From the sequence record SRR22947725_7192: DNA of 38,942 bases. The stretch is one strand, 5' to 3'. The translations under genes were made by a program, and so were the position numbers. Shown here in pieces: positions 1 through 34,780 of this stretch (within the stretch, counting starts at the first letter, position 1; each line of letters begins with the position of its first letter). The notes beneath the pieces are model-generated. The model ran no database searches. It was not told the DNA's origin and was given only the letters and a program-made list of their open reading frames with translations.

Positions 1-111
1 GTGGGGAATCAGGTGGCGGTGAACCCGGATCAGCAACTTAGACGCTATGCGGTTGCCGCGGGCTGGGAGATCCTCCGTCAGCGCAGGCGAGAGCTAAGGA
101 CCCAAAAGTAA
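1..111 (+). CDS. HAD-IB family hydrolase, 3' end only (runs off the window edge)
   Basis: Frame 1 reads VGNQVAVNPDQQLRRYAVAAGWEILRQRRRELRTQK*, matching the HAD-IB C-terminal pattern VGxPxAVNPD..LR..A...GW; stop TAA at 109-111. Not in the ORF track. Confidence 0.75.
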   Translation: MGNQVAVNPDQQLRRYAVAAGWEILRQRRRELRTQK

Positions 112-133
112 AAACCCGCCTCATTGGGCGGGT
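104..133 (-). terminator. Intrinsic terminator of bS22, between convergent genes
   Basis: Perfect 7-bp stem ACCCGCC(114-120)/GGCGGGT(127-133) with a 6-nt loop, followed on the minus strand by a T-rich tract just after the bS22 stop. Confidence 0.75.
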
Positions 134-138
134 AGTTA

Positions 139-237
139 CTACTTCTTGTTGCGACGCTGGTGGCGCGTCTTGCGAAGAAGCTTGCGGTGCTTCTTCTTCG
201 ACATGCGCTTGCGGCGCTTTTTGATTACTGAACCCAC
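139..237 (-). CDS. 30S ribosomal protein bS22 (AURKAIP1/COX24 domain), 32 aa
   Basis: Manual translation gives MGSVIKKRRKRMSKKKHRKLLRKTRHQRRNKK*; GTG start preceded by a GAGG RBS. Too short for the ORF track. Confidence 0.95.
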   Translation of the reverse strand: MGSVIKKRRKRMSKKKHRKLLRKTRHQRRNKK

Positions 238-286
238 AAAAACCTCGTCTATGTTCTTTTTGCCCTTGTGGGCAACCTGCCAAAGT

Positions 287-571
287 CTAGCCCTTGCGCC
301 TTAGGCGCTCAACCTCGGCATCGATTTGCTCGTCGGTTATCGGCTTGCCGCCAAGACGGCCGTAGGCATCGAGACCCACAAAGATTGCCGCAATACCCAT
401 CCCCAGGACTACCCAAATTGGCCAGTAGGGAGCACTCGGTGACGTAATAAACCAGACCCCGGACGTCAACGCGACCACTGCCGCGTAGACCCACATATAG
501 GTTCTGAAGTCCTGCTTTTTCTTCAGCTGCTTCTGAGCGAAGTTACGGAGAGCGTCACTACCTTCAGCCAT
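287..571 (-). CDS. 2TM domain-containing small membrane protein
   Basis: 94 aa with a basic N-terminus, two hydrophobic segments flanking a YWPIW motif, and a ...ITDEQIDAEVERLR tail typical of 2TM proteins. Confidence 0.75.
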   Translation of the reverse strand: MAEGSDALRNFAQKQLKKKQDFRTYMWVYAAVVALTSGVWFITSPSAPYWPIWVVLGMGIAAIFVGLDAYGRLGGKPITDEQIDAEVERLRRKG

Positions 572-981
572 TACTTCTTACCTACCTTTGCCTTGACTTC
601 TTCGGCGAAATGAGTGGCTTCACTTCGAACGTCGTCAACGACCTCTTCGACCTTTTGCCTGGCTAGCTTCTCGAAGTCCTTTGCACCCTTTTCGGCATCG
701 ACCTTTGTCTCTGCGAGTTTCCGACCTAGCCTCTTGCCAAGCTCCTTGGGGTCAACATCGACATCTAGCTCATCTGCGCGAGCGCGGAGCTGCTCACCAA
801 GCCAGGATGCCCTCTCGGTTATCCAGTGGCCCAACTTCTCGCCTGCCTCACTGAGGTTCTTAGCCAGGTCCTCCTCACCCTCAGCCTCGAAGCCGAGCGA
901 GAGGAAGTTGATCATCCAGTCCTCGATCTCCTCGAGCGGCTCAGGGGTTACCGAGTAAAAACGCTTTTGGCCATCCTCGCG
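571..981 (-). pseudogene. ArsR/SmtB-family regulator, 5'-truncated (helix-turn-helix missing)
   Basis: [23 protein letters not shown] is the ArsR wing and following helix. Upstream of 981 the sequence is the antisense of pnp, so there is no N-terminal HTH and no native start. Confidence 0.7.
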
Positions 982-2726
982 TGGCACTGATTGACGGCCA
1001 GTGGGTGGCATTCCCCAAGCACTCGCAGCTCGAGAACGCCGTGTTTGACATGGTGGTTGCCGGTCGAGTCATCTCGGACGGTGGCAAGGAAGACGTCGCC
1101 ATCATGATGGTTGAGGCCGAGGCCACAGACAACAGCTGGGACCTAATTGGTTCCGGTGCCCTCTCACCAACCGAAGAGGTCGTTGCTCAGGGTCTTGAGG
1201 CTGCCAAGCCATTTATCAAGGCACTGGTTGAGGCTCAGAACAAGCTTGCCAAGCAGGCTGCCAAGGAGACCGCAGAGTACCCAGTATTCCTGCCCTACTC
1301 CGATGAGGTTTATGACGCAGTTGCCGCTGAGTGTGGCGACGAGCTTGCCAAGGTCTACCAGATCGCGGACAAGCAGGAGCGTCAGGCAAAGGATGACGAG
1401 CTCAAGGCCAAGGTTCGCGAGAGCCTAGAGTCGAAGCTCTCCGAGGAGCACATGACCCAGTTCTCAGCTGCCTACAAGGCGGTTTCGAAGAAGGTAATGC
1501 GCACCAGGGTCCTCAAGGAGGGCATCCGAATTGACGGTCGTGGCCTAAGCGACATTCGTGTTATTGATGCTGAGGTTGCAGTAATTCCTCGCACCCACGG
1601 CTCGGCGATCTTCCAGCGCGGTGAGACCCAGATTCTTGGTGTCACCACCTTGAACATGCTCAAGATGGAGCAGCAGCTAGACGCGCTGACCCCTGAGACC
1701 TCAAAGCGCTACATGCACCACTACAACTTCCCTCCCTACTCAACCGGTGAGACCGGCAGGGTCGGTTCCCCGAAGCGTCGTGAGATTGGTCACGGAGCCC
1801 TTGCAGAGAGGGCGCTGGTTCCAGTGCTTCCTTCGCGTGATGAGTTCCCATATGCCATCAGGCAGGTTTCCGAGGCACTGAGCTCAAACGGTTCAACCTC
1901 TATGGGTAGCGTTTGCGCCTCGACTTTGAGCCTGCTAAATGCGGGTGTGCCGCTGCGCGCACCTGTTGCAGGTATCGCCATGGGTCTTATCTCTGACACC
2001 GTTGACGGAAAGACGCAGTACGCCGCGCTTACCGACATCCTCGGTGCCGAGGACGCCCTTGGCGACATGGACTTCAAGGTTGCCGGTACTCGCAACTTCG
2101 TAACTGCAATTCAGCTCGACACCAAGCTCGACGGCATTCCATCGGCCGAGCTTGCCAAGGCGCTTACCCAGGCCAAGGAGGCAAGGCTCTTCATTCTCGA
2201 CATCATGAACGAGGCAATTGACGAGCCAGATGAGCTTTCAGTCTTCGCACCAAGAGTCATCGCGGTGAAGATTCCGGTTGACAAGATCGGTGAGGTCATT
2301 GGTCCAAAGGGCAAGATGATCAACCAGATCCAGGAAGACACCGGAGCCGACATCTCGATCGAGGACGACGGCACCGTCTACATCGGAGCAACCGACGGCA
2401 CCAGCGCAGACGCAGCCAAGGCTGCTATCAATGCAATCGCTAACCCACACGTTCCAGAGGTAGGCGAGCGATTCCTGGGAACCGTTGTGAAGCTTGCGAC
2501 CTTCGGAGCCTTCGTTTCGCTGCTTCCAGGCAAGGACGGACTGCTACACGTCTCCGAGCTCAAGAAGCTATCGGGCGGAAAGCGCGTTGAGAACGTCGAG
2601 GACGTTTTGGAGGTTGGCCAGAAGATTCTGGTCGAGCTAACCAAGGTCGACGATCGTGGCAAGCTATCGCTCTCACCAGTTATCGAGGGTGAAGATGCTG
2701 CCGAGTCCGAGGAAGATTCCGAGTAA
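981..2726 (+). CDS. pnp: Polyribonucleotide nucleotidyltransferase (PNPase), 5'-truncated
   Basis: Motifs [37 protein letters not shown] and [12 protein letters not shown], plus KH and S1 domains. Begins mid-domain at (R)[12 protein letters not shown]; 581 aa against roughly 740-760 aa for typical actinobacterial PNPase. Confidence 0.95.
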
Positions 2727-2729: not shown

Positions 2730-4040
2730 TTGGAACTAAAGCTAGATAGCTCAGTCGAATTCACCGCTGAGGCATCAAGGATCTCAAGAACCTTGCTGCC
2801 CAGCGGTGTTCGCATTCTTAGCGAGGAGGTTCCATCCGCCCCATCGGTTGCGATAGCGGCCTCTGTCGGCGTTGGTTCAAGAGATGAGACCGATGACCAC
2901 CTCGGGTCAACCCACTTCTTGGAGCACCTTTTGTTCAAGGGGACTGCAAGACGTTCGGCCAAGGATATCTCGGTCGCATTCGATTCGGTCGGTGGCTCCT
3001 CTAATGCCGCTACGGCAAAGGAATACACCAGTTACTACGCAAGGGTGCAGAACGCGGCAATGCCGCTGGCACTTGACGTGATTCTCGACATGTTCACCTC
3101 AGCCAAGCTAGATCCTCAAGATTTCGAGACCGAGCGAACCGTGATTCTCGAGGAACTTGCCATGAATGAGGACGATCCTGAGGATGTTGCTCACGAGGCC
3201 TTCGCCGATGCCCTGATGCCCAACACTTCCCTCGGTCGCCCGATTGGAGGCAGCCCTGAGAGCATCAAGGCTGTCACCAGAGACCGCGTCTTCGAGCACT
3301 ACCTAGAAAACTATTCACCCAGCTCCCTCGTTATTACCGCAGCCGGCGGTCTCAAGCATGAGGAGCTTGTGGAGCTGGTTTCTAAGCAGCTGGCGGAGGT
3401 GGGTTGGACCGCTAATGCGGCCCCAATGCCTAGGCGTCAGCATGGTGCTGCGGGTATTCCAAGCCCAGAGCCGATGAGGCTTATAAAGAAAGACGTGCAG
3501 CAGGCGAATGTGCTGCTTGGTCACCAGAGCTTCCATGCCATGGATGATCAGCGCTACGCGCTTGGCATCATGAACACCATCCTTGGCGGTGGCATGTCAT
3601 CAAGGCTCTACCAGGAGATTCGGGAGGACAGGGGTCTTGCCTACTCCACCTACTCCTACCAGCACGGATACTCCGATGCCGGATTCTTTGGAATGTATGC
3701 CGGATGTAATCCTGAGAATGCCGCACTGGTTGTGGATTTGATGCGTCAGGGACTGGACGGCATAGCCCAGTCTGGAGTTACCGACCACGAGTTCGAGTTG
3801 GCACTTGGGAACATAACCGGGGGCCTGGCACTGCGCTTTGAGGGGACACTCTCGCGGATGAACAGGCTGATGGGTGCCGAGCTTGGAAGCGGCGAGTGGC
3901 TTAGCGTCGAAGAGGTGCTGGAGCGGTTCCGAGCGGTCACCAAGGAAGAGGTTCAGCAGGTAGCGCAGCGCATCAGGGCGATGCCGCAGACGCTGGTGGC
4001 AGTGGGTAGCGCGCTAGATCAGCTTGAAAAGAGAGCTTGA
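2730..4040 (+). CDS. M16 family (pitrilysin/insulinase-like) zinc peptidase
   Basis: HFLEH inverted zinc motif and LGGGMSSRLYQEIREDRGLAYS; usual position downstream of pnp. Confidence 0.93.
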   Translation: MELKLDSSVEFTAEASRISRTLLPSGVRILSEEVPSAPSVAIAASVGVGSRDETDDHLGSTHFLEHLLFKGTARRSAKDISVAFDSVGGSSNAATAKEYTSYYARVQNAAMPLALDVILDMFTSAKLDPQDFETERTVILEELAMNEDDPEDVAHEAFADALMPNTSLGRPIGGSPESIKAVTRDRVFEHYLENYSPSSLVITAAGGLKHEELVELVSKQLAEVGWTANAAPMPRRQHGAAGIPSPEPMRLIKKDVQQANVLLGHQSFHAMDDQRYALGIMNTILGGGMSSRLYQEIREDRGLAYSTYSYQHGYSDAGFFGMYAGCNPENAALVVDLMRQGLDGIAQSGVTDHEFELALGNITGGLALRFEGTLSRMNRLMGAELGSGEWLSVEEVLERFRAVTKEEVQQVAQRIRAMPQTLVAVGSALDQLEKRA

Positions 4041-12658: not shown

Positions 12659-13134
12659 TTATTGATACGGCCCTCGCGAAGGGGCTCCACATCGCAACCG
12701 CTGAATCAATTACCGGGGGTGCGGTGAGTGCGAGGCTCGCTCAGACGCCGGGAGCCTCAAAGGTTTTGCTTGGGGGAATTACTGCCTACCAAGATCAGAT
12801 CAAGTCGCAGCTAGTCGGAGCCTCCAGCCAGCTGATTGCTCAGCAGAGTGCTGTGGATGCCGAGGTCTGTGCCCAGCTTGCAGAGGGCGTTCGATCGAGG
12901 TTTGCAGGGGCAATGGGGCTTTCAGAAAGCGATGTCATCGGAATCTCAACCACTGGGGTGGCCGGTCCAGATTCGGTTTCGGGTAAAAGCGTTGGCGAGG
13001 TGTTTATCGGCATCTCCTCAAAAGCTGGGGTGAAGGTCTTCTCAGAGAACTTTGCAGGAGATCGGCTTGAAATTATCGAGGCAACTATTCGGCGCTGCGA
13101 GGAAATCCTGCTGGAAGAAATTGCGCTTTGTTGA
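12655..13134 (+). CDS. cinA: CinA C-terminal domain protein (NMN deamidase, PncC-like)
   Basis: ATAESITGG and STTGVAGP motifs; stand-alone domain. Confidence 0.88.
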   Translation: MIIDTALAKGLHIATAESITGGAVSARLAQTPGASKVLLGGITAYQDQIKSQLVGASSQLIAQQSAVDAEVCAQLAEGVRSRFAGAMGLSESDVIGISTTGVAGPDSVSGKSVGEVFIGISSKAGVKVFSENFAGDRLEIIEATIRRCEEILLEEIALC

Positions 13135-13215
13135 GGTTTAGCTTCAGGAAACACTCAGTAACCAGCATTATTCTTTGTCACATCCAGAGGGTAAGTTAGA
13201 GGGCCAGGAGGAAAC

Positions 13216-13530
13216 TTGGTACTACTAAGGCAAGAAATCGGTGACGTGCTGCGCACGCACCGTCAAGAGCGCGGTCAGACGCTGAGGCAGGTTGCATCAA
13301 AGGCCTCGGTCGCCTTGGGCTACCTGTCGGAGGTAGAGCGCGGTCAGAAGGAAGTCTCTTCGGAGATCCTTGCATCGGTTGCCGAGGCACTTGAGGTTCC
13401 ACTGTCTGTAGTAATGCGTGATGTTTCCGAGCGACTAGCTTCGGTTGAGGGCATGTACTTCGACGACACCTTCATTCCAGACACTGTGCCGGACGACTTC
13501 GTCACTGAGGCAGAGCTCTACTCTCACTAG
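13216..13530 (+). CDS. XRE-family HTH regulator (ClgR-like)
   Basis: LLRQEIGDVLR...VALGYLSEVERGQKEVSSEILAS; TTG start after an AGGAGG RBS; usual position after cinA. Confidence 0.88.
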   Translation: MVLLRQEIGDVLRTHRQERGQTLRQVASKASVALGYLSEVERGQKEVSSEILASVAEALEVPLSVVMRDVSERLASVEGMYFDDTFIPDTVPDDFVTEAELYSH

Positions 13531-13757
13531 TGACTCTCAGTCGCTTTCACGAATTAGTTCTCGAGGAATTTGGCGAGCAGTTTTCGCAGGTGGTTCTTAG
13601 AGACACCAGACTTCTCAAATTTGAAGACAAGACCCCTTTTGAGCTAATCAATGCCGGGCTTCATCCCAAGGACATTTGGTTTGCAATTTGCGATCAGCTA
13701 GCGGTTCCAAAAGAGCGTTGGCACGGCAAAACAAAGACAATCAGACACGCCGAATAA
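13530..13757 (+). CDS. DUF3046 domain protein
   Basis: MTLSRFHELVLEEFG...IWFAICDQLAVPKERWHG; usual position before recA. Confidence 0.85.
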   Translation: MTLSRFHELVLEEFGEQFSQVVLRDTRLLKFEDKTPFELINAGLHPKDIWFAICDQLAVPKERWHGKTKTIRHAE

Positions 13758-13763
13758 AGTTAT

Positions 13764-13779
13764 TCGAAATTTTGTTCGA
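13764..13779. promoter_or_regulatory. LexA (SOS) box upstream of recA
   Basis: TCGAAA-TTTT-GTTCGA, one mismatch to the actinobacterial consensus TCGAAC-N4-GTTCGA. Confidence 0.8.
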
Positions 13780-13815
13780 ACGCTTAGAGTTTCAACAACT
13801 CAACTAAATAGCTAG

Positions 13816-13824
13816 TTATCCACA
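13816..13824 (+). promoter_or_regulatory. Consensus DnaA box upstream of recA
   Basis: Exact TTATCCACA in the intergenic region; a single copy, function unproven. Confidence 0.5.
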
Positions 13825-13846
13825 GCGTGTCGGATTACTACAAAAG

Positions 13847-13868
13847 TGTCTGAGCCAGGGTTTAGCTT
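13847..13868 (+). promoter_or_regulatory. Candidate PafBC-type (RecA-NDp) promoter of recA
   Basis: TGTCTG-N10-TAGCTT against the mycobacterial TGTCGG-N10-TANNNT; ends 35 nt before the ATG. Confidence 0.55.
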
Positions 13869-13903
13869 TCCTTCTAGCTAACCCAGAGAGAGAAGAGGAC
13901 CTA

Positions 13904-15001
13904 ATGCCATCAGCAGCAGACCGCGAGAAAGCACTAGAGACTGCGCTAGCGCAGATTGACCGCCAGTTCGGTAAGGGATCGGTCATGCGACTAGGTTCCG
14001 AAGAGCGTGCACCTGTTGAGTCCATCCCCACCGGAGCAATCGCTCTGGATGTGGCGCTCGGCATCGGTGGACTGCCAAGAGGCAGAATTGTTGAGGTCTA
14101 CGGACCAGAGTCCTCAGGTAAGACGACTATCGCCCTGCACGCCATTGCGAGTGCTCAGGCCAAAGGTGGCGTTGCGGCATTCGTTGACGCGGAGCACGCA
14201 CTAGACCCTGAATACGCCAAGAAGCTAGGTGTGAATATCGACGACCTTCTAGTCAGCCAGCCAGATACTGGCGAGCAGGCTTTGGAGATTGCGGACATGC
14301 TGATTCGCTCAGGTTCGGTGGACGTAATCGTCATTGACTCGGTCGCGGCACTGGTGCCACGAGCGGAGATCGAGGGCGAGATGGGTGACAGCCACGTAGG
14401 CCTGCAGGCCAGGCTGATGTCCCAGGCACTCAGGAAGCTCACCGGTGCGTTGAGCAACACCGGAACCACCGCAATCTTTATCAACCAGCTGCGTGAAAAG
14501 ATCGGCGTATTCTTCGGCTCACCCGAGACCACCTCAGGTGGTAAGGCTCTCAAGTTCTACGCCTCGGTTCGTCTAGACATCCGTCGCATTGAAACCCTGA
14601 AGGACGGCCAGGACTCTGTTGGTAACAGGGTTCGAGTCAAGGTGGTCAAGAACAAGCTTGCCGCTCCATTCAGGCAGGCCGAGTTCGACATCCTCTTCGG
14701 AGAGGGCATCTCCCGCGAGGGCGGTCTTATCGATTTCGGTGTCGAGCAGGACATCGTCAAGAAGTCCGGCGCCTGGTACACCTACGAAGGCGAACAGCTC
14801 GGTCAGGGCAAAGAGAACTCAAGGCGCTACCTGAAGGAAAACCCTGAGCTGGCAAATGAGATCGAGCAAAAAATCAAGTCAAAGCTCGGCATCGGAGTGC
14901 CAAGGGCAGTGGCAGATCTTCCAGCCGAGGAAGCTGCTGCAGTTGCAGAAGAAGCGCCAGAGACTTCGGAGCCGGTGGCCAAGGCTGCCAATGACTCTTG
15001 A
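13904..15001 (+). CDS. recA: Recombinase RecA
   Basis: [24 protein letters not shown] and [17 protein letters not shown]; no intein. Confidence 0.99.
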
Positions 15002-19347: not shown

Positions 19348-20781
19348 GTGGAATCTGAGAGCGCCCTGGAGCGAATTCTTCGTCGAGGCGCCGCCGCACC
19401 CGCTCAGGAATACGACGGCGATCAGCTAGATCTAGAAGAGCGAGAGTCGCTCAGGCGGGTAATTGGCTTATCGACCGAGCTAGAGGACATCACGGATGTC
19501 GAGTATCGACAGCTCAGGATTGAGAAGGTCATCCTCATAGGAGTGTGGTCTCAGGGCAATCTCACCGCAGCCGAGAACTCGCTTCGCGAGCTTTCAGCAC
19601 TTGCGGAGACCGCCGGGGCAAAAGTTCTTGACGGACTGCTCCAGCGCAGAAACATGCCTGATCCCACCAGCTACCTTGGTAAGGGCAAGGCCTCGGAGCT
19701 AAGAGATCTCGCTCGCTCGCTTGGTGCCGATACCGTAATCGCAAATACCGAGCTCTCTCCCTCTCAGCGTCGATCGCTTGAGGACATAGTCAAAATCAAG
19801 GTCATTGATCGAACCGCAATCATTCTTGACATCTTCGCTCAGCATGCAAAAAGCAAGGAGGGTAAGGCTCAGGTTGAGCTGGCCCAGCTGGAATATTTGC
19901 TCCCCAGATTGCGCGGTTGGGGTGACTCGATGTCCAGGCAGGCTGGTGGTCAGGCCGCAGGTGGTGTCGGAATCGGCTCCAGGGGTCCCGGAGAGACGAA
20001 GATCGAGCTCGACCGGCGACGCATCAACACCCGCATGGCCAAGCTCAAGCGCGAAATCAAGGGCATGAAGCTTGCTAGGGACACTAAGCGTCAGTCAAGG
20101 CAAAAGTCTCGCGTTCCTCAGGTTGCGATCGCCGGCTACACCAACGCAGGCAAGTCCTCTTTGCTGAACAGGCTCACCAAGGCTGGTGTTTTGGTCGAGA
20201 ACGCTCTTTTCGCGACTTTGGACCCTACCGTGAGAAAGCACTCAACACCTGATGGTCGGGAGTACACAATCTCCGACACGGTTGGCTTTGTCCGAGACTT
20301 ACCTCACCAACTTGTTGAGGCATTTCGTTCGACCCTCGAAGAGATTGCCGGGGCTGACCTGATAGTCCACGTCGTAGATGCCACAGATCCTGACCCACTC
20401 GGTCAGATTTCTACCGTGAGAAGCGTTATTGCGGACTTCGATGCCAGTTCAATTGCAGAGCTTGTGGTCTTCAACAAGGCAGACCTCGTGTCCGATGAGG
20501 TTCAGGTGAGGCTCAGGGGCATGGTTCAGGGGGCGCTGCTCGTGTCTGCAAGAACTGGCCAAGGCATAGACGCTTTGCAAGAGGCCATCGCCGGCATGCT
20601 GCCAAAACCTGATGTTGAGTTTGTTGGGGTGATTCCATACTCCCGAGGAGATCTGGTTTCGCGTATCCACCTGGCCGGGAAGGTCTTAGACACAGAGTAT
20701 GTCGAGGAGGGCACTTCCCTGAGGGCGCTTGTCCGCGAGGATCTTGCCCACGAGCTCAAAGAGTTTGCTAAACGGTCCTAA
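19348..20781 (+). CDS. hflX: GTPase HflX
   Basis: [34 protein letters not shown] and NKAD. Confidence 0.97.
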
Positions 20782-21388
20782 GGACCGCCACAACCTTTCC
20801 AAGGATTACTGCCTGGTCGCCAAGGATGGGCTCGAAGGCTGAGTTTCTTGGCAAGAGCCAGGTGTGACCATCTCGTTGCTTGAAGGTCTTCACGGTGGCT
20901 TCCTCTTCGATCAGCGCTGCAACTACGTCGCCGTTCTCTGCAGTCTGCTGCTGTCTGACTACTACCCAGTCGCCATCGCAGATTGCTGCATCGATCATGG
21001 ACTCACCAACTACCTTCAGCAAGAACAGCTCACCCTGGCCGACCAGCTGCCTGGGGAGAGTAAAGACGTCCTCGACATTCTGCTCTGCTGTGATTGGAAT
21101 GCCGGCTGCAATTCTTCCCACGAGTGGAACAAGGGCGGAATCAGGACGGATGATCTCTGCCGCTGGTTCCTCGCCTAGTAGGTCGATGGTGCGCGGCCTT
21201 CTTGGGTCCCTGGAGATAAAGCCCAGTAGCTCTAACTTGTTGAGCTGATGAGACACGCTTGCTGTGGAGGAGAGTCCGACAGACTCGCCAATCTCTCGCA
21301 TGGAAGGTGCGTAGTTTCGGGACTGCATTGACTCTCTAATGACATCCAAAATGCGCTGCTGTACTGCAGTTAGTCCGCTCTGATCCAT
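20768..21388 (-). CDS. lexA: SOS repressor LexA
   Basis: [16 protein letters not shown] cleavage site, GESM catalytic Ser and ATVK Lys; ATG at 21388 after GGAGGAGAG. The ORF-track start at 21511 is too far upstream. Confidence 0.97.
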
Positions 21389-21461
21389 CTCTCCTCCAAA
21401 AATGTCGGTGGCCAGTGTTTTGCTTTGTCTATCGAAACTGTATTCGGAATTTGCAGCAAAT

Positions 21462-21477
21462 CCAAACACATTTTCGA
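21462..21477. promoter_or_regulatory. LexA box near the lexA promoter
   Basis: CCAAAC-ACAT-TTTCGA (reverse: TCGAAA-ATGT-GTTTGG), upstream of a minus-strand -10 TACAGT at 21437-21442. Confidence 0.6.
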
Positions 21478-21505
21478 AAAAAACCAAAAAAGTAGCAAGA
21501 AATGC

Positions 21506-21549
21506 TTGCAAACCGCAGGAAGATTTCTATACTTAGAACAAATGTTCGA
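21506..21549 (+). promoter_or_regulatory. Promoter of the LysM gene with an adjacent LexA box
   Basis: TTGCAA(21506-21511)-16 nt-TATACT(21528-21533), followed directly by TAGAAC-AAAT-GTTCGA (21534-21549). Confidence 0.78.
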
Positions 21550-21579
21550 AAAAGAAATTCGAGCAAGGAGGTAAGAGCA

Positions 21580-21873
21580 ATGCAGAAACTCAGTGCGTAT
21601 GAACTGACTGACCCACGACGTTTCGCTCGCGCGATCGTCATTCTCATGCTTGCTGTCGTCCTAAGTGTGGTCGGCATCACAGGCTCTGTTGCCACCGACT
21701 CAGAACCCGGCAACCTCACCTACATCACCGTTTCTCAAGGAGATTCACTTTGGTCGCTGGCCGAGGCGCACGCCAAGGGTCAGGATCCAAGAGACTGGAT
21801 CGCAGAGGTTGTAATGACAAATGCACTTCAGAGCTCAGACCTAATTCCTGGGCAACAAATCGCACTTCCATAG
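21580..21873 (+). CDS. LysM-domain membrane protein, probable SOS cell-division inhibitor (YneA/ChiZ/DivS-like)
   Basis: TM helix followed by LysM ITVSQGDSLWSLAE...LIPGQQIALP; divergent from lexA; AAGGAGG RBS before ATG 21580. Confidence 0.88.
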   Translation: MQKLSAYELTDPRRFARAIVILMLAVVLSVVGITGSVATDSEPGNLTYITVSQGDSLWSLAEAHAKGQDPRDWIAEVVMTNALQSSDLIPGQQIALP

Positions 21874-21894
21874 TCTGATGGCTAGCATTTATGG

Positions 21895-22965
21895 GTGAGC
21901 AGTCTCGAAAATCTTCCAATTCGCGTTGACCTGCGTGGTCAGGAGCCCTATGGCGCTCCGCAACTTGCTGTTCCAGTTTCTCTGAACGTAAACGAAAACA
22001 CCCATGGCATACCCGAAGAAGTTGCCCTCACAATCGTCGAGAAGTTGGCCGCGGCAGTAGTTGGTCTAAATCGCTATCCGGATCGCGAATTCTTGGAACT
22101 TAGAGAATCACTTGCCAACTTCTTGGGACACGGGCTCTCCGCTAAGCAGGTTTGGGCGGCCAATGGGTCTAACGAGGTGCTTCAGCAGTTCTTCACAGCC
22201 TTTGGCGGACCCGGAAGAAAGGCCTTGAGCTTTGGGCCCACCTACTCGATGTATCCAAACATCGCCCGGATAACCCTGACTGACTACGTTGAGGCCCAGC
22301 GACCGGAGGGGTATGAACTAACTCCAGAGTTCGTGGCTGAGGCAATTTCTGAGCACAAACCAGACATCGTTTTGATCTGTGCGCCAAATAACCCAACTGG
22401 GACTGCGGTGACACTTGAAACTGTGCGGGCAGCATATGGGGCTTTCGAGGGGATGCTTCTTGTAGACGAGGCCTACGCCGAGTTTTCGCAGGGACCGAGC
22501 TCAATTGAGCTGCTTCCCACCATGGAGCGCCTGGTGGTGTCCAGGACGATGAGTAAGGCCTTCGCATTTGCTGGGGCGAGGGTTGGCTTCATGGCCGCTT
22601 CAGAGGCGGTTGTTGACGCGATGAGGATTGTCAGGCTGCCCTATCACCTGTCAGCTCTGACGCAGGCTGCGGCTCTTGCTGCCCTAGAGCACAGCGCCCT
22701 CATGCTCGCAAACGTTGAGAAGATTAAGGTCCAGCGAGATCGAATCATTAGCGCTTGCAGGCAGTGGGGGCTCAAACCATACGACTCCGATGCAAACTTT
22801 GTTTTGGTCGCGGGCTTCTCTGACCCCAATGCTGTATTCGAAGATTTGTTGGCTAAGGGGGTTTTAGTCCGAAACGTCGGAATCCCCGGAACCCTCCGGA
22901 TTACCGCTGGCACAGAGGCCGAAACCACAAAACTTCTTGCTGAGATTGCGCTTTTGCTTGACTAG
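21895..22965 (+). CDS. hisC: Histidinol-phosphate aminotransferase
   Basis: [25 protein letters not shown] and the PLP-Lys motif [16 protein letters not shown]. Confidence 0.96.
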
Positions 22966-23000
22966 ACTTGGGGTTCAATCCCAAGTTGAAGGTGCTAAAG

Positions 23001-23600
23001 ATGACTCGCATTGCCAAAGTGAGCCGCAAGACCTCTGAGTCTGCGGTTGAGCTTGAGCTGAATCTGGACGGTTCAGGCGTTTCCGAAATCGAGACCACGG
23101 TTCCTTTTTTCAACCACCTTCTAACTGCCTTTTCCAAGCACTCACTGATTGACCTGAAGGTCAAGGCAAAGGGCGACACGGATATTGACATCCACCACAC
23201 GGTCGAAGATGTCGCAATTGTTTTGGGTCAGGCCCTCAAAGAGGCGCTCGGTGACAAGGCTGGTATTTCGAGATATGGGGATGCTGTTGTCCCGCTTGAT
23301 GAGGCCCTAGCCCAAGCGGTGGTAGATATTTCTGGCAGGCCGTATTTGGTGCACGAAGGAGAACCGGCAGGCTTTGAGTATCACCTGATTGGTGGTCACT
23401 TCACCGGTTCCATGGTTCGCCACGTCTTTGAGGCCATCGCCCACAATGCCGGCATAACGCTTCACGTTTCGCTGCTTGGTGGCCGTGATGCTCACCACAT
23501 CGCAGAGGCCCAGTTCAAGGCTTTTGCCAGGGCGCTAAGGGCTGCGGTTGAGCCTGATCCTCGGGTGCAGGGAGTTCCCTCGACGAAGGGAAGCCTGTGA
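23001..23600 (+). CDS. hisB: Imidazoleglycerol-phosphate dehydratase
   Basis: [24 protein letters not shown] and PSTKGSL; ATG 23001. Confidence 0.97.
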
Positions 23601-24226
23601 CCAAAAAGGTCACGGTCTTAGATTACGGTTCCGGCAACATCCACTCTGCTGTTCGCGCCCTTGCCGAGGCAGGTGCCGAGGTGTCCCTCACCTCTGACCC
23701 AAAGGACCTAATTGAGTCTGATGGCATGGTGATCCCCGGTGTGGGTGCCTATGCGGCAGTAATGCGAAAACTCGCAGGGGTTTCTGCGGCCTCAATTGTT
23801 GACAAGAGGCTCGCAGCCTCCAGGCCTGTGCTGGGGATATGTGTTGGGATGCAGGTGATGTTTTCTTCAGGGTTGGAGCACGGGGAAGAAACCCCAGGTC
23901 TTGGTCAGTGGCCAGGAGAGGTTTCCAAGTTGAAAGCTGAGACTCTTCCTCACATCGGCTGGACAGCAGTTGAGCCCGACGCAGGCTCGGAATTGTTCAA
24001 GGGCATTGAGGGTGAGAGGTTTTACTTCGTGCACTCCTACGCTGCAAAAAAGTGGGAGCTTGATGTGCAAGCGCCTTTCATCCCGCCAAAGCTGACTTGG
24101 GCAGAACACGGCGAGAGGTTCCTAGCTGCAGTTGAGAATGGACCACTGAGTGCAACTCAGTTTCACCCAGAGAAGTCTGGTCGGGCTGGCCTGCAGCTTT
24201 TGAGAAACTGGACAAAGACCCTCTAG
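23597..24226 (+). CDS. hisH: Imidazole glycerol phosphate synthase, glutaminase subunit
   Basis: DYGSGN, PGVGA, GICVGMQ, YFVHSY and QFHPEKS. Confidence 0.97.
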
Positions 24227-24235
24227 GAGTAGTGG

Positions 24236-24964
24236 ATGCATTTAGAACTGTTACCGGCTGTTGATGTTGCCTCAGGCAAAGCGGTTCGACTAACCCAGGG
24301 TGAGGCGGGTAGCGAGGAAGACTTTGGCCACCCGCTCGATGCAGCAATGGATTGGATTAGCGCAGGCGCTGAGTGGATTCACCTTGTTGACCTAGATGCG
24401 GCGTTTGGCAGGGGCAGCAACAAAGAGGTAATCGCTGAGGTAATTGCCAACGCTGGGGATACAAAGATCGAGCTCTCTGGCGGCATCCGCGATTCTCATT
24501 CACTGGAGGCGGCTCTAGAACTTGGTGCTACAAGAGTCAACCTCGGCACCGCCGCCCTAGAGGATCCCGAGTGGACTGCAGGAGTAATAGCAAATTACGG
24601 GGACAAGATTGCGGTTGGGCTCGATGTTCGAGGCACCACCCTCGCTGCCAGGGGCTGGACCAAAGAGGGTGGGGACTTGTTCGAGGTTCTAAAGAGACTG
24701 GAAGAGGCTGGCTGTGCTCGTTATGTGGTGACCGACGTCACCAAGGACGGAACCCTGAGGGGTCCGAACCTGGAACTTCTCAAGACGGTTATGGAGAAGA
24801 CCGCCAAGCCGGTTGTGGCATCGGGCGGTATTTCATCGCTTGAGGACATTTCCAATCTGGCTGCACTCGTTCCCCTGGGTCTTGAGGGCGCCATCCTTGG
24901 AAAGTCGCTATACGCCGGTCGCTTCACCTTGGAAGAGGCCCTTGAGGTTGCGGGCAGGGCTTGA
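24236..24964 (+). CDS. priA: Phosphoribosyl isomerase A (bifunctional HisA/TrpF)
   Basis: [27 protein letters not shown] and the ARGW loop typical of PriA. Confidence 0.93.
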
Positions 24965-25704
24965 GCGACAAATACAGCGACTCGGCTGGCGTTCCATGGG
25001 AAGGACGCTCGTTTGAGGAGAACGCCTTCGCAGATGACGACGGTAAGACTCCCAAAGCTCTTGGGGCGGCGCTCGCGGATCAGCCCATTGACAAGTCGGC
25101 CCTAGTTGCCGCCCTCACTGATTCCAGGCTGCTTATCCCTCTGATCGCCAATCTCGGTGAATCCGAACAGGGGCCTCATGGCCAGCTGGTGGACAAGAGT
25201 GCGGAGCTTGCAATTGTTGCCGTCGCTACCCCCGATAAGCAGACTGCAATACCTGTTTTTAGTTCGGTTGCGGACATGGCAAAGTGGAAAAGCGATGCCA
25301 GGCCGGTGCCAGCATCTTCACAGCGGGTCGCACTGGCGGCTGCAAGTGAGGGGCACTCGAGAATAATTCTGAATCCTGCAACTGACGCCGTTGCACTCAG
25401 AACCCCCGCTCTAGAGGCCATAGCAAAGCGCGAACAGTGGTTTCCTCCCCACAAAGACCCCTGGGTTCTTAGCTGGTGTGAAGAGGTGGCCATGAGACAT
25501 CCGCTGATTTCGACCATCGACCTCTTTGATGGAGACCCAAAGCTCGATCTTTCGCATGCGGAGCTACTGATTCAGCTGGGCATGCGCCCGAGCGTTAGCC
25601 CTGACACACTCAAGGAGCTCCTGACTTCTTTTACGGATGAACTCAGGAGTGAGGAGTTCAACCGAAGGGTTGACTCAATTGGCTACCGACTAGTGGTCGC
25701 TTAG
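24961..25704 (+). CDS. SseB family protein
   Basis: [27 protein letters not shown] and ARPVP motifs of actinobacterial SseB-like proteins. Confidence 0.8.
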
Positions 25705-26021
25705 CTAACCGGTCCGGTGTATTTCTCGCCTGGGCCTTTACCGGGCTCATCAGGCATTGCCGAGGCCTCACGGAAGGCGAGCTGAAGAGAACGAAGACCG
25801 TCGCGAAGAGGTCTTGCGTGGTGGTCACCGATTTCAGGAGCGGCAGCAGTTACCAGTCCAGCCAGAGCGGTTATCAACTTGCGGGCCTCGTCTAGGTCGG
25901 CAGGTGCATCCTCCGCAAGACCCGTCTGCACCGCAGCAGCGCTCATTAGGTGAACCGCTGCGGTATTTATAATTTCGACGGCTGGAACCTCGGCAATATC
26001 TCTTGCTGCACCCTCGTCCAA
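25701..26021 (-). CDS. DUF1844 domain protein
   Basis: RDIAEVPAVEII..AAVHLMSAAA, DLDEARKLI and LRSLQLAFREAS; divergent from infC. Confidence 0.88.
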   Translation of the reverse strand: MDEGAARDIAEVPAVEIINTAAVHLMSAAAVQTGLAEDAPADLDEARKLITALAGLVTAAAPEIGDHHARPLRDGLRSLQLAFREASAMPDEPGKGPGEKYTGPVS

Positions 26022-26203
26022 TTTGCCTCTTCTCTGTTGGCTTTTACTCTGCTAGAGTATTGCAGGCTCTGGGCTAAGGCTCAGTGAAGAAGTGGATTGC
26101 GATCCCACCTGCCAACCGCATAAAAAGGTTGTTTGGGTAAGAGAGTTTATTTATTTCTGCATGCCGCATGGCGAGCTAAAACAATTGGCAACGAGGAGCA
26201 GTT

Positions 26204-26782
26204 ATTAGCGATCCGCGCATTAATGAGCGTATTCGGGTCTCTGAGGTTCGACTAGTCGGACCAACCGGAGAACAGGTTGGTGTAGTACCAATCGAGCGGG
26301 CATTGAAGATGGCACAGGATGCAGACCTAGATCTAGTCGAGGTTTCACCCGGTTCCAACCCACCTGTCTGCAAGGTCATGGACTACGGCAAGTTCAAATA
26401 CGAAGCGGCTCAGAAAGTGCGAGAGGCTCGCAAGAACCAGGTCAACACAATCTTGAAGACGGTTCGCTTCGGTCTAAAGATCGACGATCACGACTACAAC
26501 ACCAAGGTTGGTCAGGTTCGCAAGTTCCTCAAGGCTGGCGACAAGGTGAAGGTGATGGTTGTCTTCCGAGGCCGCGAGCAGTCCAGGCCCGAAATGGGCG
26601 TGAAGCTGCTGCAGCGACTCAGCGAGGAAGTAACCGAGTTCGGAACCGTGGAGTCGACCCCATCAATCGATGGCCGCAACATGGTCATGGTTATTGGGCC
26701 ACTAAAGAACAAGGCCGAGGCAAGAGCCGAGGCGAAACGAGTTCAAACCAAGGACTCGTCTCAGACGAGCGAAGAAAACTAA
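26204..26782 (+). CDS. infC: Translation initiation factor IF-3 (ATT start)
   Basis: The frame extends upstream of the ORF-track start as [34 protein letters not shown] (26193-26198) lies 5 nt before ATT 26204; MDYGKFKYE and FRGRE motifs. Confidence 0.95.
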
Positions 26783-26793
26783 GAGGAGAGATT

Positions 26794-26988
26794 ATGCCGA
26801 AGATGAAGACCCACTCGGGTGCCAAGAAGCGCTTCCGCTTCACCGGTAGCGGCAAGCTCATGAAGCAGCAGATCAACATGCGTCACAACCTGGAGCACAA
26901 GAGCTCCCGCAGGACGCGTCGTCTGAACCAAGACCAGGTGGTATCGCCTGCAGATTTCAAGAAGCTTAAGAAGCAACTAGGCCGCTAG
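26794..26988 (+). CDS. rpmI: 50S ribosomal protein L35
   Basis: [21 protein letters not shown]. Confidence 0.98.
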
Positions 26989-27006
26989 GCGAAGGAGAGT
27001 AAGAAC

Positions 27007-27390
27007 ATGGCAAGAGTAAAAAACGCCGTCAACTCACACAAAAAGCGTCGAGTTGCACTAGAAAGAGCACACGGTTACCGCGGACAGCGCTCAAGGCTTT
27101 ACCGCATGGCAAAGCAGCAGCTGCTGCACTCGTTTGTCTATGCATACAACGACCGTCGTAAGCGCAAGGGTGACTTCCGCAGGTTGTGGATCAGCAGAAT
27201 CAACGCTGCTGCCCGCCTAAACGGCATGACCTACAACCGCCTAATCCAGGGCTTGAACCTGGCGGGTATCGAGGTTGACCGTCGCATCCTGGCCGACATG
27301 GCAGTAAACGACCCAGGCGCTTTTGCAACATTGGTTGCAAGCGCTAAGGCAGCACTGCCAAAGGACGTAAACGCTCCAAAGGTTAGCTAG
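27007..27390 (+). CDS. rplT: 50S ribosomal protein L20
   Basis: MARVK...[11 protein letters not shown]...[15 protein letters not shown]. Confidence 0.98.
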
Positions 27391-28190
27391 TGGCGCTTGA
27401 CCCAGGTTCTGCCCGGGTCAAGGAAATTGCGCGACTTTCACAAAAAGATGCCCGGTATGAAACCGGGCTCTTTTTGCTTGAGGGCCCTCAAGGGCTCAAG
27501 GAGCTAGCGCAGTATCCCGAACTCGCTCAGGAGATATTTGTTACCGAGAGTGCTCAAGAGCGCTACTCGGCTGAGATATCCACGCTTGAAAAGGCCGGCG
27601 TCGCTGTGGAGCAGGTTTCCACGCGGGTCATGGAAAAGATTGCCGACACCAAAACCCCACAGGGCATTGTCAGTGTTGTTCATCACGTTGATGTTGAGTT
27701 TTCGGAGATCGTGGAAACGAGTCCGAAGCTAGTTGTGCTGCTCGATCGCATTCAGGATCCGGGTAATGCCGGCACGATTATCCGTGCGGCAGATGCAGCC
27801 GGAGCGGATGCCGTTGTCTTTTCAACCGGGTCCGTTGACCCCTATAACTCAAAGGTGGTTCGCTCGACCGCAGGCAGCTTGCTGAATGTGCCAATTAGTG
27901 TCGGGGTCGACATGCAGGAAGCCGTAATCGAGCTGCAGTCCAAGGGTATGCAGGTGTTATCAACCAGTGCCAAGGGTGAGTCGCTGCCGGAGCTGCCCCA
28001 GGGAACGCTTGCTACTGCCTCGGCGTGGATCTTTGGGAACGAGGCTGGGGGAGTCGGCGCTGAGCTCGCCGCCTTGGCAGATAAGACGGTCTCAATTCCG
28101 ATTTATGGCTCTGCAGAGTCGCTGAATCTCGCTACAGCGGCTTCTATCTGCCTGTATTTCACTGCGTTCGCTCAGCGGGCCAATCACTAA
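27390..28190 (+). CDS. TrmH/SpoU family RNA methyltransferase
   Basis: IQDPGNAGTIIRAADAAG, FGNEAGG and AESLNLATAA. Confidence 0.93.
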   Translation: MALDPGSARVKEIARLSQKDARYETGLFLLEGPQGLKELAQYPELAQEIFVTESAQERYSAEISTLEKAGVAVEQVSTRVMEKIADTKTPQGIVSVVHHVDVEFSEIVETSPKLVVLLDRIQDPGNAGTIIRAADAAGADAVVFSTGSVDPYNSKVVRSTAGSLLNVPISVGVDMQEAVIELQSKGMQVLSTSAKGESLPELPQGTLATASAWIFGNEAGGVGAELAALADKTVSIPIYGSAESLNLATAASICLYFTAFAQRANH

Positions 28191-28200
28191 ACTTGTGCAG

Positions 28201-29232
28201 GTGTCCGAGCTAACCCAATCCGAGGTAACCAAGGCGCTCAAGAGCTCCTTGGATGCTCTGAGCGCGATTGGAACAGCGGAGGAGCTGAGGCAATCTAAGG
28301 CCCAGCTGGTAGGGGACGCAGCTCCGCTCACCAAGCTCAATGCGCTAATCAAGTCGCTACCGGGAGATAAGAAGGCCGAGGCCGGCAAGATGATGGGCGA
28401 GGCAAAGGCTGAGCTCATGGCCGCTTTTGAGGCAAAGGCTGCAGAGCTCGAGAAAATAGCCAGGGCGCAGCGTCTTGAGGCTGAGAAGGTCGACATCACG
28501 GCCGCTGCCAATTACATCCAGCGCGGAGCTAGGCACCCGCTATCGCTATTGATGGACCAGATCAGTGACGTTTTTGTTGGCATGGGTTGGGAAATCGCCG
28601 ATGGTCCAGAACTTGAAAACGAGTGGTTCAATTTCGATGCTCTGAACTTCCACCCGGATCACCCGGCGAGGGCCATGCAGGACACATTCTTTGTTTCTCC
28701 TGTTGAGAATCACTTGCTTCTCAGGACTCACACCTCCCCGGTTCAAATCCGCTCGCTTCTCGAGCGGGAGCTTCCGGTTTATGTGCTTTGCCCTGGCAGG
28801 GTCTTCCGCACGGACGAACTTGATGCGACTCACACTCCCGTTTTCCACCAGGTTGAAGGTCTAGCCGTAGATAAGGGTCTTACGATGGCCGACCTACGCG
28901 GAACTCTGGAGCATTTTGCGCGGGTGATGTTTGGACCCGAGGCCAAGATCAGGCTTCGCCCCAGCTACTTCCCCTTCACTGAACCCAGCGCAGAGCTAGA
29001 TGTCTGGCATCCAGGAGCAAAGGGCGGGCCGAGGTGGGTCGAGTGGGGCGGCTGCGGCATGGTCAACCCCAATGTTCTGCTTGCAGCGGGCATTGACCCA
29101 GAGGTCTATTCGGGATTTGCCTTCGGAATGGGCATCGAGAGAACCCTGATGTTTAGAAATGGCGTTTTGGACATGCACGACATGGTCGAGGCGGATGTTA
29201 GGTTCTCAAGGCAGTTCGGGCAGGTGATCTAG
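28201..29232 (+). CDS. pheS: Phenylalanine--tRNA ligase alpha subunit
   Basis: HPARAMQDTF, LRTHTSPVQ, YFPFTEPS and GFAFGMGIER; GTG 28201 preferred (alternative 28195). Confidence 0.97.
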   Translation: MSELTQSEVTKALKSSLDALSAIGTAEELRQSKAQLVGDAAPLTKLNALIKSLPGDKKAEAGKMMGEAKAELMAAFEAKAAELEKIARAQRLEAEKVDITAAANYIQRGARHPLSLLMDQISDVFVGMGWEIADGPELENEWFNFDALNFHPDHPARAMQDTFFVSPVENHLLLRTHTSPVQIRSLLERELPVYVLCPGRVFRTDELDATHTPVFHQVEGLAVDKGLTMADLRGTLEHFARVMFGPEAKIRLRPSYFPFTEPSAELDVWHPGAKGGPRWVEWGGCGMVNPNVLLAAGIDPEVYSGFAFGMGIERTLMFRNGVLDMHDMVEADVRFSRQFGQVI

Positions 29233-31700
29233 TGAAGGTCCCGCTTAGTTGGCTCGCTGAATACGTTGAACTTCCCAAGGACGCCTCGCCGCACGATGTC
29301 ATGGAGCAGCTGGTCCGCGTTGGCCTAGAAGAAGAATCCGCTATCGGTGGAGAGATCACCGGGCCAGTCGTTGTTGGCAAGGTGCTCGAATTTGTCGAGG
29401 AAGAGCAGTCAAATGGCAAGACCATTAGGTGGTGCCAGGTTCAGGTCGGTCCAAAGCCGGAGGATGTCCGAGGCATAGTCTGCGGCGCGAGAAACTTTGA
29501 GGTTGGCGACAAGGTGGTTGTAACGCTGCCAGGGGCGGTGTTGCCTGGTGGCTTTGAGATCGCTGCCCGAAAGACCTATGGGCACATCTCCGACGGCATG
29601 ATCGCATCGGCCAAGGAGCTCAGTCTCAGCGACGACCACGACGGAATCCTGCGGCTAGTAACCCTGGGACTTGATCCTGAGCTGGGAAGCGATGCGTTGG
29701 AGCTGCTAGGTCTCAATGAAGCCGCGGCTGAAGTCAATGTGACTCCCGACAGGGGCTATTGCTTCTCAATCCGCGGAATTGCCAGAGAGTACTCGCACGC
29801 AACCAAGGCCAAGTTCACCGACCCAGCATCGCAGGTAACGCCTGAGAAGGTCTCCGGCTTTGATCTCAAGGTCGCCGACAGCGCCCCAATTCATGGCACC
29901 GCTGGCTGCTCAAACTTCTTGCTGGTGGGGGTTGAAGGAATCGATGCCACCTCGCCCACTCCGTCCTGGATGGCAAATCGACTGAAGCTTGCGGGCATGC
30001 GATCAATTTCGATAGCCGTCGACATCACGAACTACGTGATGCTTGAGATGGGCCAGCCCCTTCACGCCTACGACCTCGACAGGCTGACCGGTGGCATTGA
30101 GGTTCGCAGGGCCAAAAAGGGCGAGAAGATAACCACCCTTGACGATAAAGAGCGCATCCTGCACGAAGAGGATCTCTTGATCACAGATCAGAGTGGACCT
30201 ATCGGCATCGCCGGTGTCATGGGAGGCGCGAGCACTGAAGTCAGCGACGCCACAACAAAGATCCTGCTTGAGGCCGCGATCTTTGATCCGATCTCGATCG
30301 CGCGCTCGGCACGCAGGCACAAACTGCCATCTGAGGCATCTCGAAGGTTTGAGCGCGGTGTTGACCACAAAGTTTCCGCCTACGCTGCCGCTAGGGCCGC
30401 ACAGCTGTTGGTCGAGCTCGCCGGCGGCAAGCTCTCAGGACTTGGCGCAGAGCACGTTACCGAGATGGCTGCTGTAAAGATTTCCATGGACGCAAGCTTT
30501 CCTTCGGCTCTCGTCGGCTATGAATACCAGGAAAAGGAAGTCGTCGCGGCTCTGGAGATGATTGGCTGCAAGGTCTCAGGCAAGGGGTCTTTAGAGGTTG
30601 AGGTTCCTTCTTGGCGGCCAGATCTCAGGCACAAAACTGATCTAGCCGAAGAGGTTGCAAGGCTTGTGGGGTATGACAAGATTCCTGCCACCATTCCAGT
30701 CGCACCTCCCGGCAGAGGACTCACCCGCAAGCAGCAGCTGCGCAGAAAAGTTCTCGGCACGCTCGTTGGCGGCGGCTTTGTTGAGGTCCTCAACTACCCG
30801 TTCTACTCTCCCGAGCAGAATTCTTGGTTTAGCTCTCGTAAAGCAATAGAACTTGAAAACCCGATCCAGAGCGAGGCGGGACAGCTTCGCAAGGAGCTGT
30901 TGCCAGGGCTGTTGCAAGCAGCATCAAGAAATGTCTCCAGAGCAAATAGCAATCTCGCGATTGTTGAGGAGGGTTCCGCTTTCAAATTTGGCGGAACCGC
31001 GGTTACTTCGCTGCCGGTGGGCAATGAGCGACCAAGTGACAAGGTTTTGGCGAGCCTGAACGCCTCGATTCCGTCGCAGCCGAGGAAGCTTGCGGGTGTG
31101 GTCCTAGGTGACTGGGTTCCGCAGCAGCCAGGTCAAGCCTCTATAGAAGCTGGCTACCAGCAAGCCATCTCGGCTCTGTTTTCTGCCCTAGGCAGCATTG
31201 GAGTTGATGCAGCTCTCACTCAGTCCGAGGTTATGGGCCTTCACCCTGGCAGAGGAGCAAAGGTTTTAGTTTCGGGCAAAGAGGTCGGCATTGCCGGTGA
31301 GCTACACCCCGACATCGCTGACGAGCTTCACCTTCCAGGGAGGGTAGGGGTCTTCGAGGTTGATCTGAGTGCCATATATGACCTGTCACCAGAGCTAATT
31401 ACCGCATCCGAGATAGGCGTCATGCCAGCTGCCACCCAAGATCTTTCGCTGGTTGTCGGGCTCGATGTTTCGGCAGCTGATCTGGTGGAGACAATTGAAG
31501 AGGGTGCCGGTGAGCTCCTTGAGAGCATCTCGCTAGTTGATGACTGGCGCTCGGAGACTCTCGGCCAGAAAAAGTCACTCACCTTCTCAATGGTCTTTAG
31601 GGCCAAGGACAAGACACTGACTGCAGCCGAGGCCACCGCTGCCAAGGAGTCAGCTGTTCAGCTGGCCGCAGAGCGGCATGGAGCGGAGCTGCGCGCATGA
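29232..31700 (+). CDS. pheT: Phenylalanine--tRNA ligase beta subunit
   Basis: [39 protein letters not shown] and [10 protein letters not shown]. Confidence 0.97.
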
Positions 31701-32743
31701 CGATTCAGGTTGCGGTCGCGGGAGCCAGTGGTTACGCAGGCGGGGAGCTGCTTCGGCTCATCTCCGCTCACCCAATGCTCGACCTGGGCAACGTGACCGC
31801 TTTTTCAAACGCAGGGGAGACCCTGGGCAAGATTCAGCGGCACCTAGGTGAGTTTGCCGACCGCGTTCTGCTTGAGACGACTGCTGAAAACCTGATGGGC
31901 CACGAGGTGGTCTTCTTAGCCCTGCCTCACGGTCAGAGCGCGGCTATTGCAAATCAACTTCCTGAGCACATGCTGGTGATTGATTGCGGAGCGGACTTTA
32001 GGCTTCACGACCCCTCCGCATGGCGTGACTACTACGGCAGCGAGCATGCGGGAACCTGGCCCTACGGACTTCCCGAGATGGTCACCGCGGACGGCGGAAA
32101 GCTGCGCGGGAGACTGCGTGAGCAGCGCAGGATCGCAGTCCCGGGCTGCAATGTCACGGCGGTCACTCTTGCCTTGGCGCCCGCGGCGGCGACGGATCTG
32201 ATTCAGGTCGAAGACCTGGTTGCCACCCTCGCGGTTGGCACATCGGGAGCTGGCAGGGCGGCAAAGCCGGACCTGCTCGCCACCGAGGTGATGGGATCGG
32301 CGAGGGCCTACTCCGTGGCCGGGTCACATCGCCACATCCCTGAGATGCTTCAGAATCTTGCGATTGCATCGGGTAAGCGCGGATCGATTTCCTTCACACC
32401 AATCCTGGTTCCGATGACAAGGGGCATCTTTGCCTCCGTGGCTGCAAAGCCGGGCAGGCGATTCTCTATGGAATACATTCGCGAGGTTTATCAGGATGCC
32501 TACGGCGATGAAGAGTTTGTGAAGCTGTTGCCTCCGGGAGAGGTTCCACAGACCGGAGCTGTGCTGGGCTCGAACATGGCCCACGTCGCAATCGAATACG
32601 ACGAGCGTGCCGGTCGGGTTTTGTTTATGTGTGCAATTGACAACCTAGTGAAGGGCACCGCAGGTGCTGCGATTCAGAGCATGAACATAGCGCTGGGACT
32701 CACCGAGCAGACTGGGTTGACAACCGTTGGGGTAGCTCCTTGA
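31697..32743 (+). CDS. argC: N-acetyl-gamma-glutamyl-phosphate reductase
   Basis: [22 protein letters not shown] and [16 protein letters not shown]. Confidence 0.96.
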
Positions 32744-34778: not shown

Positions 34779-34780
34779 AG

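Follow-up and report, generated by a model that had tools for sequence, protein, structure and literature searches.

At window positions 977 to 981, two genes that have each lost their 5' ends meet head to head: an ArsR-type regulator gene on the minus strand and pnp, which encodes PNPase (GPSI), on the plus strand. The window is the whole 38,942-nucleotide stretch of DNA that was analysed, and the junction lies close to its left end. Reading inward from that end, the displaced left arm carries the 3' end of a HAD-IB hydrolase gene (1 to 111, plus strand; the last 36 codons and the stop, the remainder being cut off by the window edge), a gene for the 32-amino-acid small ribosomal protein bS22 (139 to 237, minus strand), a gene for a 94-amino-acid 2TM-domain membrane protein (287 to 571, minus strand), and the remnant of the ArsR/SmtB-type regulator gene (571 to 981, minus strand; codons 62 to 197 and the stop). 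To the right lie the remnant of pnp (978 to 2726, plus strand; codons 161 to 742 and the stop) and, in its native context, a downstream M16 peptidase gene with Pfam domains Peptidase_M16 and M16_C (2730 to 4040, plus strand). The original prediction had placed the ArsR wing on the minus strand left of 981 and PNPase on the plus strand right of 978, and the open reading frames of the window agree with it.

Both arms have close counterparts in the nearest genome, G001 (900 kb, 64% complete, in 90 contigs), where both of the broken genes are intact. The bS22 model NF047430 (ribo_bS22) matches the ribosomal protein gene at an E value of 3.3e-17, with 62.3 bits against a cut-off of 34, and Pfam 2TM (PF13239) matches its neighbor at 2.1e-7. 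The start of the 2TM gene overlaps the stop of the arsR-like gene, and a 2TM gene also follows the arsR-like gene in G001. The HAD-IB fragment ends in VGNQVAVNPDQQLRRYAVAAGWEILRQRRRELRTQK and a stop codon, as does a 236-amino-acid G001 protein that, at full length, matches TIGR01490 (HAD-IB) and Pfam HAD. The regulator remnant aligns with residues 62 to 197 of a 197-amino-acid G001 protein, from which it differs at 1 amino acid. Within that intact protein, Pfam HTH_5 (arsR family) covers residues 10 to 59 and NCBIfam NF033788 residues 1 to 80; both assignments come from the G001 protein only, as a domain search of the window open reading frame (571 to 1011) returned no HTH match. Since the window copy begins at residue 62 and HTH_5 ends at residue 59, the whole HTH is missing, as had been proposed. 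With residues 1 to 61 gone only the wing is left, and the window frame lacks the winged helix-turn-helix DNA-binding domain that characterizes ArsR/SmtB proteins. The frame runs on past the junction for 10 codons (982 to 1011, minus strand) up to an ATG at 1011, a spurious extension that is antisense to pnp and has no counterpart in the native protein of G001, G018, G024, or G009.

The damage to pnp is of the same kind. Its longest open reading frame extends from an internal GTG at 981 to 2726, and the resulting 581 amino acids are identical to residues 162 to 742 of the G001 PNPase. In the intact 742-amino-acid enzyme, the first RNase_PH domain occupies residues 21 to 152. The window protein keeps the Pfam domains PNPase, RNase_PH, RNase_PH_C, KH, and S1, with a single RNase_PH core; the first is missing, and with it the full two-RNase-PH-domain core of a functional PNPase. 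Consistent with such a truncation, the NCBIfam PNPase models (NF008805 / TIGR02696) match the window frame only from position 149 of 683 or 158 of 720, and the score of 1026.8 bits falls below the TIGR02696 cut-off of 1106.75. An N-terminal loss of about 170 residues had been expected from the window alone; the loss is real, and measured against G001 it amounts to 161 residues (1 to 161).

The order of genes around each native locus in G001 shows what has been separated. On contig C13, rpsO (Pfam Ribosomal_S15) is followed by the intact 742-amino-acid PNPase gene, in line with the expectation that pnp usually lies behind rpsO, and the M16 gene comes after pnp as it does in the window. On contig C55, proC is followed by the intact 197-amino-acid ArsR/SmtB-type gene and then by the 2TM, bS22, and HAD-IB genes in the order found in the window, which bears out the view that the bS22/HAD-IB neighborhood is normally a separate locus from pnp. 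Window positions 1 to 981 correspond to C55:11433-10453 at 97.5% identity and without indels, and positions from 977 onward correspond to C13:16142 onward at 97.9% identity, again without indels, so that the two arms match G001 in opposite orientation and on separate contigs. The rest of the window is conventional: positions 977 to about 20100 are collinear with C13, positions 19632 to 28641 with G001 contig C6, and positions 27000 to 38942 form one collinear piece with G015 contig C5 (78%) and are also collinear with contigs of G024 (97%). The sole break in synteny in the window is therefore at 977 to 981, and the missing 5' parts of pnp and of the arsR-like gene are not found elsewhere in the window.

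A three-way alignment of the window with both native G001 loci fixes the switch point at 977 to 981. The left arm fits C55 up to 981, the right arm fits C13 from 977, and the pentamer TCGCG between them makes up the only letters that both native loci have in common at the switch. The original prediction had recognized a microhomology here but counted four letters, CGCG; the shared stretch is five nucleotides long. When window sequence was joined at random in 400,000 simulations, only 0.55% of the joins had a microhomology of at least 5 nucleotides (P = 0.0055), and since this length is so rare by chance, the join was probably made by annealing rather than by blunt ligation or simple concatenation.

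The arms abut directly, with no spacer or intergenic DNA between them, and no sigma-70-like promoter or terminator was matched within positions 500 to 1500; the absence of both promoter and intergenic DNA had been noted before. As the window contains no N letters, a scaffolding join is ruled out. A repeat-induced error in the assembly graph is likewise ruled out, the left arm having no second copy in the window and the native loci sharing only 5 nucleotides. Programmed, site-specific inversion was also rejected: TCGCG is all that the native sites have in common, and neither G001 site carries a recombinase gene.

Three origins had been put forward for this geometry: an inversion, a deletion, or a chimera. 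The first would be a real, very recent, and strain-specific inversion at TCGCG between a co-oriented arsR-like gene and pnp, produced by illegitimate recombination or a replication template switch. A few hundred kilobases would have been flipped, the window would hold one of the two resulting junctions, and the cell line would have been left without an intact PNPase or ArsR-type regulator. We regard this as unlikely, but several properties of the window suit it. The junction is clean, with neither N letters nor filler. The arms are equally similar to G001, at 97.5% and 97.9%; arms drawn from different strains would have proved a chimera, and the lack of a difference is not decisive, although the absence of any sign of different strains does count against a chimera. 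The GC skew of the first kilobase is -0.10, compared with positive values in 34 of the 37 other one-kilobase bins and none below -0.03, as expected for a freshly inverted segment, although a chimera would give the same value.

Comparison with relatives was one of the checks proposed for the breakpoint. Of 41 related genomes, 39 have matches to the query, and none of the 41 carries the junction; the 62 match rows listed include none that bridges it. Left-arm matches in these relatives stop at query positions 479 to 487 and right-arm matches begin at 478 to 500. The same pattern recurs in metagenomes. We compared the window with four public runs from four different studies, all from samples other than the window's own (best share of sampled words, 0.70), and among the matches listed, contigs in all four match the window on one side of the junction alone, with the match either ending at 981 or beginning at 977. 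The loose ends shown in runs X1, X3, and X12 are the native G001 continuations letter for letter, and in run X4 the match of record 25 stops at 981 and that of record 26 at 977, each record continuing for hundreds of letters. Of the 32 pieces among the matches listed (136 further pieces exist), none crosses the junction.

Larger collections gave a consistent picture within the limits of exact searches. A 40-mer spanning the junction had no match in JGI metagenome contigs or in GTDB species representatives; these collections may omit the window's own records, and since the 40-mer includes a strain-private letter (973), the search would overlook this junction if a different strain carried it. 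The corresponding native G001 pnp 40-mer occurs in three JGI contigs, all of which align with the window only from 977 rightward and diverge to the left. Neither the 145/146-amino-acid chimeric frame nor the 581-amino-acid frame was present in an exact look-up of a 15-billion-protein collection, from which the assembly may be missing and in which gene callers may have picked other starts. Measured against all of the relatives and other samples examined, the junction is a true breakpoint. Its absence from all 41 genomes, from the four runs among the matches listed, and from the three JGI contigs weighs against a real inversion. That the junction lies so near the window's left end was dropped as evidence of an artifact. 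In other metagenomes the conserved bS22 gene is a tangle, with depth spikes and several loose ends at 139 to 236, and such a tangle would end the contig under any reading.

How long the two genes have been broken can be judged from their substitutions. Compared with G001, the pnp remnant has 27 synonymous and 0 nonsynonymous differences in 581 codons, and its dN/dS is 0.059 against G018 and 0.038 against G013; the arsR remnant has 12 synonymous differences and 1 nonsynonymous difference in 136 codons. Each remnant has kept evolving like a functional gene over essentially the entire period since the lineages of the window and G001 parted. As a rough estimate, assigning half of the dS of 0.067 to the window branch and multiplying by 1321 nonsynonymous sites gives about 44 neutral changes expected in a pseudogene of branch age, against the 0 observed, which would date the break to about the final 7% of the branch. 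With 27 synonymous and 0 nonsynonymous changes, the join has to be extremely recent if it is biological at all, and an inversion would have to fall within that short final interval.

A related idea would account for both the uniqueness of the junction and the complete lack of decay. The window could derive from a real but nonheritable molecule, one that arose in vivo, whether in a dead-end cell or in DNA undergoing degradation or repair, and was sampled by chance. Many low-frequency spontaneous junctions are described, in the available text of PMC3411829, from deep-sequenced Salmonella chemostat cultures. The short-microhomology candidates described there failed verification, a single rare molecule is not normally the path an assembler chooses, and a molecule of this kind could be told apart from an in vitro chimera only with the source reads. 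We give this explanation very little weight.

What a real rearrangement would have involved can be worked out from two closed genomes. In G009 (1,362,706 bp), which belongs to the genus, pnp lies at 897 kb and the arsR-like gene at 1,248 kb, both on the minus strand and 350 kb apart. Relative to these co-oriented genes, the arms of the window lie on opposite strands, so the second segment is inverted, and in this layout only an inversion of about 350 kb could join the two 3' parts head to head. The geometry of an inversion is exact in this respect. With both genes on the minus strand, the inversion would probably fall within one replication arm, and it would probably turn about a quarter of a streamlined 1.4-Mb genome against the direction of replication. 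Closed G023, with a genome of 1.5 Mb, has the pair on opposite strands (434 kb and 1,279 kb). No inversion can yield the junction from this layout; only a deletion could, and it would take out about 650 kb.

The G023 arrangement is the one point at which the genomes lend themselves to a large deletion between a divergent arsR-like gene and pnp, removing everything between them, which would also produce a head-to-head join. On the G001 contigs, such an event would take away at least C55:1-10452 and C13:1-16141, a minimum of 26.6 kb with proC and rpsO among the genes lost; in G023 the arc between the divergent genes is the 650 kb just described, and in G009 the co-orientation of the genes means that no deletion gives the junction. 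Of the three geometries first proposed, inversion thus fits closed G009 and the chimera gains support, and deletion is so improbable that we treat it as practically excluded. An inversion is possible but costly. It would destroy a near-universal RNA-decay enzyme as well as the regulator, and would leave the M16 gene without its upstream DNA. PNPase (GpsI) is called essential in Mycobacterium tuberculosis in the available text of PMC12203904, and this bears on the window organism indirectly, by analogy with a distant actinobacterium.

We therefore favor an origin outside the cell, in which the join at 977 to 981 would be an in vitro template-switch or assembly chimera that represents no state of a chromosome. 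We consider this likely, as did the original prediction in preferring an artifact to real biology: the junction is unique to the window, neither gene shows decay, and both genes are intact in relatives. Each arm is collinear with a separate native locus and otherwise unaltered, the second segment is inverted, and the microhomology exceeds that of random ligation. By analogy, an inverted, GC-rich microhomology of 5 nucleotides would match the signature reported for polymerase chimeras. The likeliest route would be that the polymerase switched templates while the DNA was being amplified or made into a library: a nascent strand ending in TCGCG may have reannealed to the same pentamer at the other locus, and the assembler would then have taken the chimeric molecule into a metagenomic contig. 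Under this mechanism, the first 980 bases would be the bS22/2TM/arsR locus in inverted orientation, the other 38 kb would be the native pnp-M16-dapB region, and pnp and the arsR-like gene would both be intact in the real genome.

The behavior of assemblers enters this argument on both sides. A de Bruijn assembler cannot by itself make a join at 5 nucleotides. With so few letters in common between the two loci, and with no scaffold gap, the junction must have been present in one or more physical molecules or reads. Faced with a chimeric edge of low coverage, most short-read assemblers would discard it and not extend the contig across it by 980 bases. That the assembler did continue for 980 bases lends some support to a well-supported junction, for which a short-read assembly usually needs several reads, and to that extent speaks for an inversion and somewhat against a chimera.

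The two main readings have different consequences. If the join is an artifact, gene callers would annotate a false 581-amino-acid "PNPase" and a false 146-amino-acid protein that opens with 10 residues read from the antisense strand of pnp, and the first 980 bases would lend false synteny to any bin built from the contig. The contig should then be split at 977 to 981 and neither frame annotated as a gene. If the join is real, a streamlined marine actinobacterium would have lost PNPase naturally by way of a large inversion, giving a PNPase-null lineage within the phylum of M. tuberculosis, a species in which the enzyme is reported to be essential (PMC12203904, available text). Such a variant would be of moderate interest for the biology of RNA decay and for rules of genome stability, yet it would be a single, young, and probably deleterious one. 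That an uncultured marine or estuarine strain of this streamlined actinobacterial group should carry a microhomology-mediated inversion of about 350 kb and persist as a natural PNPase-null lineage at an assemblable frequency seems to us distinctly improbable.

Known systems offer three points of comparison. Like the window, inversions found in Salmonella chemostat cultures (PMC3411829) bring distant loci together at a unique junction whose endpoints carry short inverted homology. The resemblance ends with the length of that homology. According to the available text, the spontaneous inversions that were confirmed by experiment carried at least 12 bp, whereas those candidates that carried 7 and 9 bp could not be verified. 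The 5 nucleotides found here are thus of a length at which candidates there failed, which argues against an inversion in a cell.

Misassemblies of metagenomes, of the kinds that MetaQUAST terms "inversion" and "relocation," are a second class, treated in the metaMIC study (PMC9661791). About 65% of misassembly breakpoints in the CAMI sets fall within coding sequence, according to the available text of that study, and the window likewise has its breakpoint in coding sequence, carries a single error per contig, and is revealed by noncollinearity with a close reference. Misassemblies described there are caused mainly by repeats; the loci here share only 5 nucleotides, and a chimeric read is needed. 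The same source states that reference-based detection alone hardly separates errors from real structural variation, a limit that applies to the present comparison as well.

The third comparison is with the template-switch chimeras that polymerases form during whole-genome amplification by MDA (Lasken and Stockwell 2007, PMC1855051). In the part of that study available, 85% of 475 chimeras were inverted, and 76.8% had been primed at complementary stretches of at least 2 bp and up to 21 bp. Most of the inverted chimeras (337 of 406) join segments less than 10 kb apart, unlike the loci here, which lie at least 350 kb apart in closed relatives. This difference from the common class, together with the lack of any sign of sample amplification, is a point in favor of a join made in a cell. 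The window would resemble the rarer intermolecular class of MDA chimeras, in which complementarity was reported at only 34.8% of inverted junctions. The form of the junction itself is shared: as in the MDA chimeras described in the available text (PMC1855051), the join is inverted, it lies at a short complementarity (5 nucleotides here, 2 to 21 there), it contains no filler DNA, and both of the joined segments are otherwise unaltered.

Over its last part, positions 28642-38942, the window has no counterpart in G001, the nearest related genome (~98% identical), whose assembly is 64% complete. The same segment is collinear with contig C5 of a second related genome, G015, and with contigs C5 and C4 of a third, G024; the gap therefore lies in G001 and does not reflect an insertion in the window. 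The G001 assembly also has a contig break that the window spans at 19632-20101, where the ends of contigs C13 and C6 both match the window, overlapping by ~470 bases.

GC content, ~0.56 elsewhere, dips to 0.499 at 13001-14000 and to 0.505 at 21001-22000. Both dips fall inside stretches collinear with G001, and they could represent small islands or variable genes.

The bS22 gene (139-237, minus strand) is short and highly conserved. In other metagenomes, depth over this gene and its flanks spikes to as much as 190 against a baseline of ~11, and several loose ends occur at 139/140, 181, 188 and 236. The gene is common to other actinobacterial populations and behaves as an assembly tangle.

On the same strand, the start of the gene for a 2TM-domain membrane protein (287-571) and the stop of the ArsR/SmtB-type gene (571-981) overlap in an ATGA at 571. 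Intact forms of both lie on the stretch L002, at 1911-2195 and 1318-1911, respectively, and the pair is kept in four related genomes (G001, G018, G024 and G009). The ArsR/SmtB-type protein of the window's genus is unusual: a winged helix-turn-helix of 80 residues is followed by a charged, helical C-terminal extension of ~115 residues, for which the Pfam matches, to Apolipoprotein and DUF7342, are weak and sub-threshold.
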